From the NCBI GenBank assembly GCA_951406725.2, contig OX597821.1:61070001-61134000 (forward strand): 64,000 nt of DNA. The letters run 5' to 3'. Below are positions 1-49,617 of this stretch, piece after piece. Position numbers and translations under genes: made by a program. How positions within the stretch are numbered: position 1 is the first letter of the stretch; the number at the start of each line of letters is the position of its first letter. Source of the stretch: Octopus vulgaris (Eukaryota). The notes under the pieces are model-generated. The model was given only the letters and a program-made list of their open reading frames with translations, searched no databases and was not told where the DNA came from.

Positions 1-469
1 TTTTACCCCTCTGCGAAGTAATTTCCTTTAATTTCTTCGTAAGAAGGGCTAGTTCGATGAGTCGTGTTCTGTCCTCACCTTCGAAACACACTGGAGTTGA
101 ACTAGGGACAGCTGATGAAGGGGATTTTTCCTTGTGTAGTTTGTCAAGTACTTTGTTTTTTCTTTGTAAAAAGAAGGTTCGTTCCATGCTTGTTTTCGTT
201 CTCGTTGAGTTCTGCGTCTATTTGTGGTGTCCTCTACTCACGTATATATATTTATACATGCATGTATATATACATGTAGATGTAGGTACGTACATATATG
301 TATGTATGCATATATTTTATTTATTACACTATTGTATGACTGAGCGCCTTCGCGTCGATTCGATTCGATTCGTTCCGTTTCGTTTCGTTTCTTCTTCTCC
401 CAGTACAGTTTATATAAGGCCCTCTGACAGAACACATTGCTTTCTAAAGAGAAGTGTGTAAGATAATCC

Positions 470-2226: not shown

Positions 2227-3315
2227 CTATATATGATTCCCTCTCTTTCCCTCTACCTATCAATTCATTTATGTGTAGCACACAGCAATATATTTAGTAC
2301 ATTCTTCTCATGTAGAATAGTTGTACTTAAGACGCTTCTTTCAATCAATAAAATCGGTCATTTTCCTTCTCCTCCTTCACCGTCTTTTGCTTTTTTTTTC
2401 CCTCACTGATTTTTCGCTGTCTTTTTGTTTTCGGTGACCGATTTCCAACTTCGTTTCTTAAATCTATCCAATTCCGCCCACCAACCACAACCACATATCT
2501 ACCTTGTCGTCGTCATTTCTCTTTCTCTTTTTAAACTGCTTAAACATTCACAATGGTACGTAGCATTTATCCTCATCATAATCTATTCGCTGCAAGTCTG
2601 AGACACAATTTGTTCTTAATTTATAATGGTTTCGAGTTATAAATAAAAATCTATACAAGGTTTTCAAAGACGATAGGTTTTTCAAGAAGTAAACACTTTC
2701 ATAAAGATAAGAATCTTATCTCATAAGAAAAAAATTAGGCAAAAATTCAGATATCTACATGAAATTTAATTATCAATGCAGGACTTAAATATCTTACGCG
2801 TATCTTTGGGGAAAAATTCTATTTGTAGCAATGAGATGATTTGGACTGAATCACAACTAAAATACGGAAAAGAAAAGAAAAAATCTCATTTTGTAGTTTG
2901 TCTTATTATATTTGAGTCAAACCTGTATGTATCCTTCCTTCAAATTTATATTATTTTACAGTTTCTTTTTGCGCGCAGTAAGCAATAGAAAATTCAGAAG
3001 GGACAACGGTAAAATGAATTGTATTACTGAATATCAGGAAGGTTTAAAGGCATGAAGAAAGACAAAAAAAATATAAATAAATAAAAAAGAATAAAATAGG
3101 AAAAGCGGAAACCAAAAAAGAAAAAATAAAGGCAACAAAACTGAAAGTTCTTAACTACTTAGTGAATCACAGTGAATCGTGTGTGAGTTGATTGAACGAT
3201 TAACCTTCTCTTTTGTGTTTCTAATATGAGGTTAATAGTCCAATAAAATCATATTACACGACTGTTAACTCATCTCAAAAACTGTAAACATAAATCTTTG
3301 TAGTATTTTTGTAAA

Positions 3316-3945
3316 TTCCTTCTACTTCCCTTCCTCTTCCTCCTCCTCCTCCTCCTCCTCCTCCACTTCTATGCTTCTACGCCTCACTTCCCCGCCTGCT
3401 CTGTCTCTTCTTCCATCTCTTCCACCTTCTCCCCTCCTCCGCCTCCTCTTCGTCCTCCTCTTCCTCCTCATCCTCCTCTTCCCCTACTTCTATGCTTCCA
3501 CGCCACACTTTCCCACCCTTTCTGTCTCATCTTCCATCTCTTCCGCCTCCTTCCCCTCCTCCTCTTCCTCCTCCTCCACCTCCTCCTCCCCACCTCCTCC
3601 TCCACCTCCTCCTTCCCACCTCCTCCGTCTTCTACGTCTTCCCTTACTTCTCCTCCGTTTCTTTCTCTTTCTTCTCCTCCGTCTTCTCTTCGTCATCTTC
3701 TCCATCTCCTGTTCTTCCTCCTCCTCCGCTTCATCATCTTCGTAATATCCATAGTCCCCGCCTCATCGTCTTTCTTATCGTCGTCGTCACCATCACCACC
3801 ATCACCACCACCATCATCATCATCGTCATCATCATGATAGTCACAGTCTTTATTACATCCACCGTCGTTGCCATAGTTATTATCGTCATCGTCGTCGTTG
3901 CCATCGTCCGCCTTCATCGTCTCAACCACCGCCATCGACATCATC
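3316..3945. repeat. Pyrimidine-rich low-complexity tract (CCT/CTT, then CAT/CGT) with an internal ~120-bp duplication
   Basis: CTTCTATGCTTC(T/C)ACGCC... recurs at ~3366 and ~3487. The ORFs here are Pro/Ser/Glu homopolymer artefacts. Confidence 0.85.
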
Positions 3946-4371
3946 TTATTTGTAACTTCGAAGGACTGGTATTGTAAATGTTGTTTTTTTCTTAGTAGCT
4001 GCTGATTCATATAAAATGTGCATTACCAACAAATGAAGCTAATCATTTTGGAAATTCTTTTATTATCCGACTAAATTATTTCAGAATATATTAAGAATGC
4101 CTTCTTTTGTATGAAAGTATACTAATGAAATATGAAATGCGTTTCGCACATTCTATTGTTTAATTATAATTCTCTTACAAATAAATTTTCGAAATCTTAA
4201 TTGTGTTTTCTATTATTTTACTTCGCAACAATTGCTAGGCTTTTTCCAAATTAATATAGAAAATGTAATTTTTTTTCGTTACATGAGACGCCATTTCCAA
4301 TGACTTTTCTCCATTTTGCAATAACGGGAATGCGTTGAATGTATTTGAGATACGTGGGTAGCGCGTCAATT

Positions 4372-16368: not shown

Positions 16369-16530
16369 ATTATATATATATTCTCTCCCAATTTCGCAGT
16401 GTGTGTATGTGCATAAATAAATGTATTTACGGTAATGTATCCCATTGCTTAGGTTATAATATTTCATTAATATATGTTTTGATGAACGTCAGATCTGATA
16501 ACAAGATTGCTTTACACCATTCAAGGCCTC

Positions 16531-19500
16531 AGAGATCAAAGAGGGGTGCCGACAGAGATCAAAGGGGGTGCCGACAGAGATCAAAGAGGGGTGCCGACAG
16601 AGGTTAAAAAGGGTGCCGACAGAGATCAAAGTGGGTGCCGACAGAGATCAAAGAGGGGTGCTGACAAAGATCAAAGGGGGTGCCGACAGAGATCAAAGAG
16701 GGGTGTCGACAGAGATCAAAGAGGGGTGCCGACAGATATCAAAGGGGGTGCCGACAGAGATCAAAGAGGGGTGCCGACAGAGATCAAAGAGGGTGCCGAC
16801 AGAGATCAAAGAGGGTGCCGACAGATATCAAAGGGGGTGTACAGAGATCAAAGGGGTGCCGACAGAGATCAAAGAGGGGTGCCGACAGAGATCAAAGAGG
16901 GATGCCGACAGAGATCAAAGAGGGGTGCCGACAGAGATCAAAGAGGGATGCACAGATATCAAAGGGGGTGCCGACAGAGCTCATAGGGAGTGCCGACAGA
17001 GATCAAAGAGGGGTGCCGACAGAGATCAAAGAGGGTGCCGAAAGAGATCAAAGAGGGGTATCGACAGAGATAAAAGAGGGGTACCGACAGAGATCAAAGA
17101 GGGTACCGACAGAGATCAATAGGGGTGCCGACAGAAATCAAAGAGAGGTGCCGACAGAGATCAAAGAGGGGTGCCGACAGAGATCAAAGGGGGTGCCGAC
17201 AGAGACCAAAGAGAATGCCGACAGAGATCAAAGAGGGGTGCCGATAGAGATCAAAAAGGGTGCCGACAGAGACCAAAGGGGGTGCCGAAAGAGATCAAAG
17301 AGGGGTACCGGCAGAGATCAATGGGGGTGCCGACAGAAATCAAAGAGAGGTGCCGACAGAGATCAAAGAGGGGTGCCGACAGAGATCAAAGTGGGTGCCG
17401 ACAGAGACCAAAGAGAGTGCCGACAGAGATCAAAGAGGGGTGCCGACAGAGATCAAAAAGGGTGCCGACAGAGATCAAAGGGGGTGCCGACAGAGATCAA
17501 AGAGGGGTGCTGACAGAGATCAAAGAGGGGTGCCGACAGAGATCAAAGAGGGGTGCTGACAGAGATCAAAGAGGGTACCGACAGAGATCAAAGAGGGGTA
17601 TCGACAGAGATCAATGGGGGTGCCGACAGAAATCAATGAGAGGTGCCGACAGAGATCAAAGAGGGGTGCCGACAGAGATCAATGGGTGTGCCGACAGAGA
17701 TCAAAGAGGGTTGCCGACAGAGATCAATTGGGGTGCCGACAGAAATCAAAGAGAGGTGCCGACAGAGATCAAAGAGGGTACCGACAGAGATCAAAGAGGG
17801 GTACCGACAGAGATCAATGGGGGTGCAGACATAAAGCAATGAGAGGTGCCGACAGAGATCAAAGAGGGGTGTCGACAGAGATCAAAGGGGGTGTCGGCAG
17901 AGACCAAACAGGGTGCTGACAGAGATCAAAGAGGGATACCGACAGAGATAAAAGAGGGTGCCGACAAAGATCAAAGAGGGGTACCGACAGAGATCAAAGG
18001 GGGTGCCGACAGATATCAAAGAGGGGTACCTACAGAGATAAAAGAGGATGCCGACAGAGATCAAAGAGGGGTGCCGAAAGAGATCAAAAAGGGGTGCCGA
18101 CAGAGATCAAAGAGGGATGCCGACAGAAATCAAAGAGGGTGCCGACAGAGATCAATTGGAGTGCCGGCAGAAATCAAAGAGATGTGCCGACAGAGAGCAA
18201 AGGGGTGCCGACAGATATCAAAGGGGGTGCCGACAGAGAACAAAGAGGGTGCCGACAGATATCAAAGAGGGGTGCTGATAGAGATCAAAGGGCGTGCCGC
18301 CAGAGATCAAAGAGGGGTGCCGCCAGAGATCAAAGAGGGGTGCCGACAGGGATCAAAGAGGGGTGCCGACAGAGATCAAAGAGGGGTGCCGACAGAGATC
18401 AAAGGGGGTGCCGACAGAGATCAAAGGGGGTGCCGACAGAGATCAAAGAGGGGTGCCGACAGAGATCAAAGAGGGATGCACAGAGATCAAAGGGAGTGCC
18501 GACAGAGATCAAAGGGGGTGCCGATAGAGATCAAAGAGGCGTGCCGACAGAGATCAAAGAGGGGTGCCGATAGAGATCAAAGAAGGGTGCCGACAAGGAT
18601 CAAAGAGGGTGCCGACAGAGATCAATGGGGTGCTGACAGAGATGAAAGGGGGTGCCAACAGAGATCAAAGAGGGGTGCCGACAGAGATCAAAGGGGGTGC
18701 CGACATAGATCAAAGAGGGGTACCGACAGAGATCAAAGGGTGTGCCGACAGATACCAAAGAGGGGTACTTACAGAGATAAAAGAGGGTGCCGACAGAGAT
18801 CAAAGAGGGGTGCCGACAGAGATCAAAGGGGGTGCCGACAGAGATCAAAGAGGGTGCCGACAGAGATCAAAGATGGTGCCGACAGAAATCAAAGAGGGGT
18901 GCCGACAGAGATCAAAGGGTGTGCCGACAGAGATCAAAGGGGGTGCCGACAGAGACCAAAGAGGGTGCCGACATAGATCAAAGAGGGGTGCCGACAGATA
19001 TCAAAGGGGGTGTTGACAGAGATCAAAGAGGGTGCCGACAGAGATCAAAAAGGGGTGTCAACAGAGATCAAAGGGGTGCCGACAGAGATCAAAGAGGGGT
19101 GCCGACAGAAATCAAAGACGGGTGCCGACAGAGATCAAAGGGGGTGTACAGAGATCAAAGGGGGTGCCGACAGAGATCAAAGAGGGGTACCGACAGAGAT
19201 CAAAGAGGAGTACCGACAGAGATCAAAGAGGGATGCCGACAGAGATCAAAGAGGGGTGTCGACAGAGATCAAAGGGGGATGCACAGAGATCAAAGGGGGT
19301 GCCGACAGAGATCAAAGTGTGTGCCCACTGAGATCAAAGAGGGGTGCCGAAAGAGATCAAAGAGGGGTGCCGATAGAGATCAAAGAAGGGTGCCGACAAG
19401 GATCAAAGAGGGTGCCGACAGAGATCAATGGGGTGCCGACAGAGATCAAAGGGGGGTGCCGACAGAGATCAAAGTGGGGTGCCGACAGAGATCAAAGGGG

Positions 19501-19784
19501 GTTCCGACAGAGATCAAAGAGGGGTGCCGGGAGAGACCAAAGTGTTGCCAAAAGAGGTCAAAGAGGGGTGCCGACAGAGATCAAAGGAGGTACCGACAGA
19601 GATCAAAGGGGATGCCGACATAGTTCAAAGAGGGGTGCCGACAGAGATCAAAGAGGGGTGCCGACAGAGATCAAAGGAGGGTGCCGATAGAGATCAAAGA
19701 GGGGTGTCGAGAGATATCAAAGGGGGTGTCGACAGAGATCAAAGAGTGTGCCGAAAAAGATCCAAGAGGGTGCCGAAAGAGATC
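16531..19784 (+). repeat. Minisatellite, consensus AGAGATCAAAGAGGGGTGCCGAC (23 bp, with frequent 22-bp variants), roughly 145 units
   Basis: Head-to-tail units with no unique spacers and a strongly purine-rich plus strand. Unit count estimated from length. Confidence 0.97.
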
Positions 19785-19898: not shown

Positions 19899-20335
19899 AT
19901 GTGGCGGTCCTATAAAAGACGGTGTTACTGTTGATTAAGCCCAAGGAAAACATCTTTTCCAGCTGGCCATCGACACAGTCTGTGTCCGTATAGCTTTTGC
20001 AAGGGAGGTCATCGCCCCCATCTCCAACTTTACTTGATACTCACAGACCATAGTTTCTGGTTGGTTACCTGTCCTCAGTGTGAGATAATCATTGGCTGTT
20101 GATGAAATCTTTCGCCACACGAAAACTCTATGTATTCTTTAAGCGACACACAGTCGCTTATCTCGTATAGAGAAAAACGATTTATTTTTAATCTCTCAGA
20201 GTGAGGTGTAGAGTAACTGTACCCAATAGTAAAGTTTATTTATCAACAAAATGTGGCGGTCCTATAAAGGGCGATGTTACTGTTGTTTAAGCCCCAGGAA
20301 AGCATCTTCTCCAGCTGGCTATCAACGACACACAG
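19899..20335 (-). mobile_element. Diverged copy of the ~350-bp hammerhead-containing tandem unit (putative non-LTR retrozyme), ~1.25 units
   Basis: ATGTGGCGGTCCTATAAA recurs at 19899 and 20251 (period 352). The reverse complement aligns by eye over the whole unit with 48069-48698. Confidence 0.8.
20035..20091 (-). ncRNA. Type I hammerhead ribozyme (canonical core, decayed stem II)
   Basis: Minus strand UGAU-UAU-CUCACA CUGAGGA CAGGUAACCAACCA GAAAC UAUG GUC UGUGAG-U-AUCA. Stem I is a perfect 6-bp CUCACA/UGUGAG, followed by the CUGANGA and GAAA boxes and a GUC triplet. Confidence 0.8.
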
Positions 20336-47470: not shown

Positions 47471-48085
47471 AAGATATGTAAATTTATATAACACATACAT
47501 ATGTGTATATGTTTATATAAATAATTCACGCTGCTGTAATCTTATGAAAGCTACGCAATTAACAGTGAAGAAATCATTGACTACTATTTTCACTACTTTG
47601 CCAGAGAAAATTCCTGAACCATCCTCTTCAGTTTTGGTGCTAACGACAGAAATTAGTCCTGTAATTATCTATCCGTGAAGAACGGTTTACAATAGAGAAT
47701 TCCAAATCAAAAGCTTTACTCCGAGAAAAAAAATTCTTATTATCATTTCCTGAAACACTAAATACGGGTGTAGTGTAATTTGTATTGGTCTGCTGATGAT
47801 ACCAAAAGTTAATTTAACCATTCTGAGTTTCCCTCTGCAGTATAAGTGCAGTGTGGTCAAATTTATAGTTTACTATTTGTTTTAGGTTGATATATGTAAA
47901 AATAGTAGTTCTGATAAGACTGGACAACAGTTATATAGTGAAAGAAGTGTGAATTAACATATTTGGTATTGTATATTAGCCACTACAAAGGAACAAAATG
48001 TTGACTTAGCGTTAGGAAGGAGAACAAGATATTTTAGAACTTTAACAGCGTTTGGTTTATTGTCACCCCCCTTTCATCGTAATCT

Positions 48086-48146
48086 GGTGATTACCGCCCG
48101 TTGACAAGAGGCAACAACCTCGAAACTGCAGTCCGTGCGTATCACT
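48086..48146 (+). ncRNA. Type I hammerhead ribozyme, U3-A8 core variant
   Basis: GUGAU-UAC-CGCCCG UUGACAA GAGG-CAACAA-CCUC GAAAC-UGCA-GUC CGUGCG-U-AUCAC. Stems I, II and III all pair. Predicted cleavage is after 48133. Confidence 0.88.
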
Positions 48147-48435
48147 TAGGCTTACGAGAAAGGGATGGCCTCCCTTTGCAAATACCATAAGGGCACAGAT
48201 AGTGTGCCTATAGCCAGCTGGAGACGATGGTCTCCTGGGGCTAAAAGCTACAGTACCCCCCTTTGCGGTTAGCCATATTGAGATGGCTATTATACTTTAC
48301 ATTGTCGAGCGGTTATTGTTTACATCTCGTTCAGAGATTTAATAATGCTTGCAGACAGTTTTTTCGAAATCAGTGACGGAAGTTACTAGAAAAACACATA
48401 TATTTGCATACAGGCTTTCCCTTTCATCGTAATCC

Positions 48436-48496
48436 GGTGATTACCGCCCGTTGATAAGAGGCAACAACCTCGAAACTGCAGTCCGTGCGTATCACT
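48436..48496 (+). ncRNA. Type I hammerhead ribozyme, U3-A8 core variant (second copy)
   Basis: Identical to the first except the core reads UUGAUAA, a change at the free N7 position. Predicted cleavage is after 48483. Confidence 0.88.
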
Positions 48497-49617
48497 TAGG
48501 CTTACGAGAAAGGGATGGCCTCCCTTTGCAAATACCATAAGGGCACAGATAGTGTGCCTAAAGCCAGCTGGAGACGATGATCTCCTGGGGCTAAAAGCTA
48601 CAGTAACCCCCCTATGTGGTTAGCCATATTGAGATGGCTATTATACTTTACATTGTCGAGCGGTTACTGTTTACATCTCGTTCAGAGATTTAATAATGAT
48701 TTTTTCTTTGTTTATCTCAAAATACAAGTTAAAAAGGTATACTGATTAACATTCCTCAAATATTTGATTAAGCATTAAGCAACAAATAACTAGAATATCT
48801 ATGTACATCAAATTGGATTAGAATGACTTTCCTTAGCATCTCAATATTTACTGCGTTGATGCCGCCAAAATGACGTTCGTAGTTTAATAAGAAAATACAT
48901 TAATTTTTGTTTAAGATTTCAGTTCAATGTGTGAGTGATTATATTAGTGTATCAAGTGATTGAACGATTTAGTAGGTGGATTAGGAAGATAAAACCAATA
49001 CTTAGTCATTAAGCATCTACAGTTTATATACTGTTGTTATTAAAGAAATCAGTTCTGTTTAGAAGAGAGCAGTATGATAAATTAGATGTGCGTTCATTCT
49101 GACGTCTAGGTCAGGATGCAATTATATTAATATGACATTTACATATATGCAAGTGAAATACGTGTGCAAAGCGAGAGTTCATACAAATAATGAATAATAA
49201 TGTAAACAAAAAGAAGGGTAGACATCTACATACATACATTACACATATACACAAACATATATAGGTTATCACATACATATAGGCTATCATTTATTTATAC
49301 GCACATGTTCTATTTAATATTCACATGCATAATTGCTGTTGTTTATCCCCAAATGAATCATGATTGACCAAACATAGGATGAAATATATTTACACCGTTA
49401 CCATTTATTATATTTCTGAAGGTATCAATGAATACATTATCTCCAAGATAGTGGGGGGGGGGGGGTGATGTGAAGGAGGAAGATTTGTCATCTCTATCTA
49501 ACAGATCAACTAACAATTCTACATGACTTCTACAATCAATATTAATGTCTTTATAAAGACCGGAAAGTTGAAAGATGTATGCACAATCATTTGAATCGGA
49601 ATTCCAGTTATATAAAT

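Follow-up and report, generated by a model that had tools for sequence, protein, structure and literature searches.

In a superfamily of hammerheads, which are self-cutting RNA motifs, selection probably keeps a pyrimidine-purine pairing between core positions 3 and 8 together with a double-hammerhead fold, and both U-A and U·G appear to be tolerated at the contact. This reading draws on one locus in the window (the whole 64,000-nt stretch of DNA analysed) and on its relatives across the genome (2.8 Gb). Amplifying subfamilies carry each of C-G, U-A and U·G, and no C·A subfamily was demonstrated. Because younger sister families carry U·G, which is as common as U-A, the 3-8 pair likely tolerates more than the textbook says. 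Judged from trees and counts, the contact seems to behave like an ordinary helix pair across the superfamily.

An abundant 350-bp non-coding repeat is inserted at the locus as a tandem of 1.8 units (Table 1). The two copies (48069-48350 and 48419-48701) are 96.8% identical over 283 bp at an offset of 350 bp, and their plus-strand cores read TTGACAA and TTGATAA, respectively. These letters, UUGA(C/U)AA in the transcript, and the CTGAGGA of a minus-strand homologue were all re-read as the earlier note had given them. N7 is the sole core difference between the copies, as had also been stated, and only one other base differs within 48075-48160, in outer stem I. At N7 the family as a whole is polymorphic between C and U, and U was counted by eye in 21 of 87 copies.

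Table 1. Positions of the repeat, its hammerheads and related copies (window coordinates unless a contig is named).
Feature	Position	Strand	Basis or remark
Retrozyme-type unit, copy 1, one full 350-bp period	48069..48418	+	self-comparison; tandem relatives with 350-363 bp periods
Copy 2, 283 bp	48419..48701	+	ends at the family's preferred 3' end (+240..252 from U3)
Stem I 5' arm, copy 1, UUA bulge and long outer extension	48069..48100	+	fold, Rfam match
Core U3 U4 G5 A6 C7 A8 A9, copy 1	48101..48107	+	letters
Stem II, 4 bp, 6-nt loop	48108..48121	+	fold
G12-A13-A14-A15.1, 2-bp helix III, palindromic loop UGCA, U16.1, C17	48122..48133	+	predicted cut after 48133
Stem I 3' arm, copy 1	48134..48163	+	fold
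Rest of unit between copies (spacer)	48351..48418	+	homologous in tandem relatives
Core U3 U4 G5 A6 U7 A8 A9, copy 2	48451..48457	+	predicted cut after 48483
Decayed copy of older C3-G8 family, same superfamily	19921..20110	-	core at 20072-20078
Second short fragment of older C3-G8 family	20276..20322	-	alignment
Second U3 family loci	G000:C2:18472069, C2:46967578, C2:168187182, C2:145063858, C1:9566045		L263-L266, L154

In both copies the motif sits in a complete type I hammerhead fold, which bears out the claim that it is a hammerhead with U3-A8. Each copy has a stem I of 6 bp (including one C·U mismatch) with a UUA bulge and a long outer helix, a 4-bp stem II, GAAA, a 2-bp helix III closed by a UGCA palindrome, and GUC. 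The remaining core (U4, G5, A6, N7, A9, G12, A13, A14, the A15.1-U16.1 pair and H17) is present in both copies and invariant in 36 of 36 subfamily representatives. The canonical C3-G8 letters are absent from the window hammerheads, which have U3-A8, a published natural variant, in their place. Compared with shuffled sequences, the hammerhead region folded with z = -3.1 and -3.7 in the two copies. A local Rfam scan matched Hammerhead_HH9 at 32.3 bits (E 8e-7), under the gathering score of 52, and the stem I bulge and loop II agree with the HH9 consensus in their sequence letters; a scan of the whole window at E<=1 gave just microsatellite-driven miRNA matches and no hammerhead.

The short helix III and palindromic loop would permit a double hammerhead. 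The unconstrained minimum-free-energy structure of a two-copy transcript (48066-48525) was a double hammerhead with a shared helix III of 8 bp, at -163.8 kcal/mol compared to -147.5 kcal/mol for two monomers, a predicted advantage of 16 kcal/mol. Folded as a circle, the 350-nt piece between the cut sites reached z = -5.4, with none of 60 shuffles as low and 62% of its positions paired; the unit-length circle is thus predicted to be highly self-paired.

Many dispersed copies of the repeat were found on many contigs of the genome, nearly all matches being 87-97% identical, both as monomers and as tandems with a 350-363 bp period. No frame that stays free of stops for at least 130 aa overlaps 48069-48701. 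We examined the insertion footprint at 41 family loci, in which two pairs of loci are the same place. Segment 3' ends fell at +240..252 from U3 in 40 cases, at +198..204 in 19 and elsewhere in 10, so that the two clusters are spaced ~45 nt apart, and both orientations were present at 22 of the 41 loci. Penelope-like insertions are described in passages of PMC11167929 and 10.1101/2021.04.23.441226 as partial tandems with an adjacent inverted 5'-truncated copy and a 30-40 bp tail between two reverse-transcription start sites. With its partial tandems, inverted truncated copies and two 3' ends, the insertion shape here is, on sequence grounds, that of a Penelope-mobilised element. The tandem unit of ~350 bp, with one type I hammerhead per unit, non-coding and dispersed, likewise has the make-up of a putative metazoan non-LTR retrozyme, for which a unit of ~170-400 bp with one type I hammerhead is the defining range. 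The Penelope-like footprint and the non-coding tandem structure led us to file the element as a non-LTR retrozyme-type repeat.

Several details of these arrays stood out. Within the spacer, a T-run and an AAATCAG(T/C)-like block are conserved across diverged families, and an AT-rich box lies closer to the hairpin start. One tandem dimer (G000:C2:55685526-55685916, L278) carries two hammerheads from different U3-A8 subfamilies and may reflect template switching or serial insertion. At G000:C1:94.32 Mb (L176-L179), U3·G8 units recur at ~1.38-kb spacing within a larger tandem array.

The homologue with its core at 20072-20078 is an old, worn member of a distant family and not a direct ancestor of the window copies, since the nearest C3-G8 family to the window family is at a p-distance of 0.157. 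It shares ~69% identity with the window copies and 82-89% with its own nearest relatives; its stem II is broken and its fold is no better than that of shuffled sequence (z = -0.2). A 45-bp tandem array (16530-19784, ~73 copies, 23-bp sub-period, long stop-free frames) lies 140 bp from this decayed copy, and a TCC-rich low-complexity stretch at 3269-3977 contains overlapping stop-free frames of 158-220 aa.

When positions 3-9 were left free, U3-A8 was found in 87 of 88 matches to the window family, the remaining one being a rearranged copy. U3-A8 is therefore a fixed family state that was inherited, not an event at the window locus; the fixed state fits the earlier note, whose reading as a whole is supported in part. 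For genome-wide counts we used a stem-independent descriptor with fixed spacing, which also catches other hammerhead families, and the reversed pattern as control. It returned 2635 matches with C3-G8 (control 10), 573 with U3-A8 (control 42), 669 with U3·G8 (control 37; ~630 after correction) and 135 with C3·A8 (control 16). By eye, this clade supplied 91 of the 100 U3-A8 matches listed and 82 of the 100 U3·G8 matches listed. About 30% of control-corrected matches carry U3; as had been predicted for this subfamily, a strict CUGANGA search would miss these.

Counts within single backgrounds separated the states further. In the UAUA-loop clade with positions 3-9 free, U3·G8 made up 91, U3-A8 8 and C3-G8 1 of the 100 matches listed of 354. 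In the closest C3-G8 background, the 100 matches listed of 214 comprised 93 C3-G8, 2 U3-A8, 2 C3·A8 and 3 others, and none with U3·G8. Neutral decay of C3-G8 copies was considered as the source of U3·G8 and rejected, because the ancestral stem II background yields 18 scattered singletons among 19 matches, far below the ~630 U3·G8 matches. Whole subfamilies carry U·G, look younger and have the rest of the core intact, which indicates that this state is not decay. Matches with C3·A8, spread over several families, are mostly explicable by CpG decay: C7pG8 is a CpG in the family from which many of them come, and other CpG sites of that family had decayed in 50 of 131 cells compared to 186 of 3200 cells elsewhere. 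A C3·A8 subfamily is nonetheless compatible with the tree: when 8 such rows were held as a single clade, p-AU was 0.594 and the likelihood lay 9.07 above the free search.

The earlier note had held that single changes at 3 or 8 strongly impair the ribozyme, and had set beforehand, as its refuting test, that mismatched combinations be as common as paired ones. The first claim fits the 135 matches with C3·A8 and not the 669 with U3·G8, which outnumber the 573 with U3-A8 and belong to young amplifying subfamilies. Since U3·G8 is as common as U3-A8 and occurs in amplifying subfamilies, the refutation applies to the U·G wobble; it does not extend to C·A. Counting mismatches within one young family was tried and rejected as a selection test: its 87 copies show no change at positions 3 and 8 and four at positions 4 and 5, which is uninformative because copies mutate neutrally once inserted. 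The same A/G toggling at position 8 may have occurred independently in a second hammerhead family, which has different stems, a GGCC-type loop III and U3; three of its copies carry A8 and two carry G8.

For the tree, 280 loci gave 277 descriptor rows, of which 192 were kept for full-length homology; the focused tree has 159 rows, after 33 rows of distant families were dropped, and the wider tree 171, with positions 3 and 8 masked. Because rows were sampled with state-specific patterns, proportions on the tree differ from those in the genome, and the bootstraps are rough and not fully settled. The C3-G8 families form the basal ladder. By parsimony, C3>U, A7>C and G8>A all map to one short branch, which agrees with the earlier proposal of a paired C3>U and G8>A swap, and C3 changed to U once across the superfamily tree. 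Two early U3-A8 copies retain the ancestral C10.1·A11.1. The window copies fall in a pure U3-A8 clade (33 rows, support 98/96). In the best tree the U3·G8 lineage (66 rows, 100/99) branches from within the U3-A8 rows and itself includes further U3-A8 groups. Placing all U3·G8 rows in one clade was rejected (p-AU 1.8e-21), as was placing all U3-A8 rows in one clade (p-AU 3.4e-7). Later family-level changes at position 8 number five by parsimony, falling to three if the CURG-loop U3-A8 rows are held together (p-AU 0.50, not rejected).

U3·G8 may have arisen after U3-A8 or may have been an intermediate. A tree that unites the early U3-A8 rows in a clade next to the U3·G8 lineage was not rejected (p-AU 0.132). 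A surviving U3·G8 intermediate at the base of the U3 clade was sought and none was found (0 of the 100 matches listed of 214); L293, one of the U3·G8 singletons with the ancestral stem II, was placed next to a C3-G8 row (support 99/90). A longer alignment, contaminated by truncated inverted copies, resolved the base poorly. The median distance to the nearest other locus was 0.027 and 0.013 in U3·G8 subfamilies compared to 0.042 in the window's group, and the U3·G8 subfamilies look younger than the window's U3-A8 family. Across the whole lineage, U3·G8 rows are 21-32% apart from one another. A-to-I editing was considered as the source of A8>G and is unsupported, since A>G (36) does not exceed T>C (45) on family-level branches, leaving no sense-strand excess. 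In columns outside the core, terminal branches carry C>T 148 and G>A 144 times compared to A>G 58 and T>C 76 times, and substitution types are balanced on family-level branches. These spectra fit a history in which methylation drives decay once copies are inserted, with selection preserving structure in the source copies.

The rest of the ribozyme is strongly conserved. Twelve core and helix III positions show zero family-level changes on the tree; as 44% of columns outside the core are unchanged, twelve such positions would arise by chance with a probability of 0.44^12, ~5e-5 (hand calculation). Since tree rows had been picked by a core pattern, we rechecked this with the positions left free. 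With positions 3-9 free in the UAUA-loop clade, U4, A6 and A9 occurred in 100 and G5 in 97 of the 100 matches listed of 354. With positions 12-17 free, G12, A13, A14, A15.1, U16.1 and C17 occurred in 100 and C15.2 in 98 of the 100 matches listed of 580.

Covariation was assessed on the 36 subfamily representatives, which were hand-picked. In these, 92.8% of cells pair compared to 27-47% in slid controls, and two-sided changes occur in 12 of 20 pairs, which supports the predicted three helices with an open stem I. Loop III is self-complementary in 97% of cells, in versions reading UGCA, CGCG, UAUA, CUAG, UCGA, CCGG and CAUG. The 3-8 tally in this set (C-G 15, U-A 12, U·G 8) follows from how the rows were chosen and cannot serve as a test. 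Of 35 representatives, 15 have a non-standard pair 10.1-11.1, which indicates that the superfamily tolerates several weak features. Across families this pair (48108 and 48121 in the window) cycles from C·A in old ones to G-C, G·U and U·U, and U10.1-U11.1 is also among the natural core variants in PMC3088659. The earlier argument that the double change implies selection thus holds in a changed form: the swap alone does not carry the case for selection, which draws on the stems, the palindromic loop III and the remaining core.

It is very improbable that only Watson-Crick pairs at 3-8 are viable, so that U3-A8 would be a selected double change and mismatched copies dead. C3>U and G8>A do share one short branch, C3·A8 is rare, no U3·G8 subfamily was found among the 19 matches in the ancestral stem II background, and U3-A8 recurs inside the U3·G8 lineage as if pairing had been re-selected. 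Such a rule is hard to reconcile, however, with the abundance of U3·G8 after control correction and with the placement, by eye, of 82 of the 100 matches listed in homogeneous subfamilies, which include tandem arrays, look younger and persist over 21% divergence; for U·G, it appears largely refuted. Catalysis might instead have been relaxed: C3>U would have crippled the ribozyme, U3 lineages would have spread without cleavage, position 8 would drift, and the shape would be kept for protein binding. Family-level changes at position 8 are as many as at N7 on the tree, and U3·G8 lineages have a weaker palindrome (UAUA, -7.2 kcal/mol, vs UGCA, -11.1 kcal/mol) and G·U or U·U at 10.1-11.1. Passages of PMC11167929 describe the Penelope hammerhead as protein-assisted and dispensable for insertion in vitro. 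Mutagenesis predicts low activity; in the portion of PMC9901934 on a type III hammerhead, pairwise mutants were rescued only by G3-C8. We nevertheless consider relaxation unlikely, as position 8 takes just A or G on the U3 background, the twelve positions above are without family-level change, and loop III has changed at all four letters yet remained palindromic, which is the expectation for a dimeric ribozyme.

The toggling at position 8 could also reflect recombination or template switching between co-expressed subfamilies and not repeated point changes, to which we give only a small chance. Positions 7 and 8 vary jointly in the CURG-loop clade (U7-A8 vs C7-G8), and diagnostic columns conflict between its subgroups. 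However, double CpG deamination would likewise convert C7pG8 to U7pA8, the CURG-loop U3-A8 rows can form one clade, and the UAUA U3·G8 lineage includes a U3-A8 subfamily of four loci; U3·G8 would be viable under either reading.

Under the preferred reading, of selection for pyrimidine-purine pairing and the double-hammerhead fold, a read-through transcript over tandem copies would most likely fold as a double hammerhead and be cut after each C17, releasing unit-length RNA that can circularise. We infer this cleavage and the circular RNA, together with a Penelope-like protein that would reverse-transcribe the unit RNA back into the genome, from passages of PMC7229834 and PMC4209133 and from the footprint. 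After the single C3>U change, position 8 would have shifted again between A and G at least three times, with G8>A steps likely aided by CpG deamination where N7 is C (C7pG8). U3 would accept A or G at position 8, the contact needing a pyrimidine-purine pairing. Selection most likely acts on retaining some ability for cleavage and ligation, with slower cores tolerated. We also raise, tentatively and with some doubt, the idea that the superfamily is a natural fitness landscape of the 3-8 pair in which, after C3>U, the U·G core, predicted to be strongly impaired in vitro, came to characterise the lineages that are youngest and most amplified, since slow or protein-gated cleavage aids transposition. 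If true, the fitness of retrozyme RNAs would peak at sub-maximal catalysis, which the series C-G, U-A, U·G would test directly.

The U3-A8 covariation is not novel: it was published as a natural variant in 2011, and is said there to be active in vitro (PMC3088659), and again in 2014, when ~1,300 U3-A8 motifs were described from Penelope-like elements of Schistosoma (PMC4209133). PMC7151607 quotes a single natural U3·G8 core, which comes from a saltern source and carries a two-base insertion. No account of these families turned up in a literature search for U3-G8 hammerheads and for hammerheads or retrozymes of cephalopods; subscription papers and supplements may contain one. The swap is real, family-wide and already known, by itself an ordinary new example; the worthwhile part is comparative, a lineage-level picture of C-G, U-A and U·G. 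Within one genome and on one tree, there are hundreds of dated C3-G8, U3-A8 and U3·G8 copies of the same ribozyme; they show which states evolution accepts at a catalytic tertiary pair and form a natural construct set for asking how much cleavage a retrozyme needs.

Among known systems, the metazoan non-LTR retrozymes (PMC7229834; 10.64898/2026.07.22.740005) share with the repeat non-coding tandems of ~350 bp (350-390 bp in mussel), one type I hammerhead per unit, dispersed monomers, dimers and multimers, a highly self-paired predicted circle and a link to Penelope-like elements. They differ in the core, which here is U3-A8 with U3·G8 in sister families; the passages of these reports mention no such core and no cephalopod. 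The Cercyon elements of Schistosoma mansoni, in passages of PMC4209133, have the same U3-A8 covariation, missed by the authors' first descriptor, and a dimer-type helix III as here. Their hammerheads are minimal and lie in pseudo-LTRs of coding elements, whereas ours lie in a non-coding repeat, have a canonical type I fold with a 6-bp stem I with bulge and a 4-bp stem II, and derive from a C3>U change that can be placed on a tree. The 2011 variants of Perreault et al. share U3-A8 and appear there as isolated examples. In contrast to the saltern U3·G8 core, the U3·G8 cores here lack an insertion and number several hundred copies in amplifying subfamilies. Finally, Rfam Hammerhead_HH9 (RF02275, clan CL00010), matched locally at 48083-48155 over the whole model, shares the stem I UUA bulge and a CAA-type loop II with the window copies but, unlike them, itself has C3-G8 and a monomer-competent helix III.
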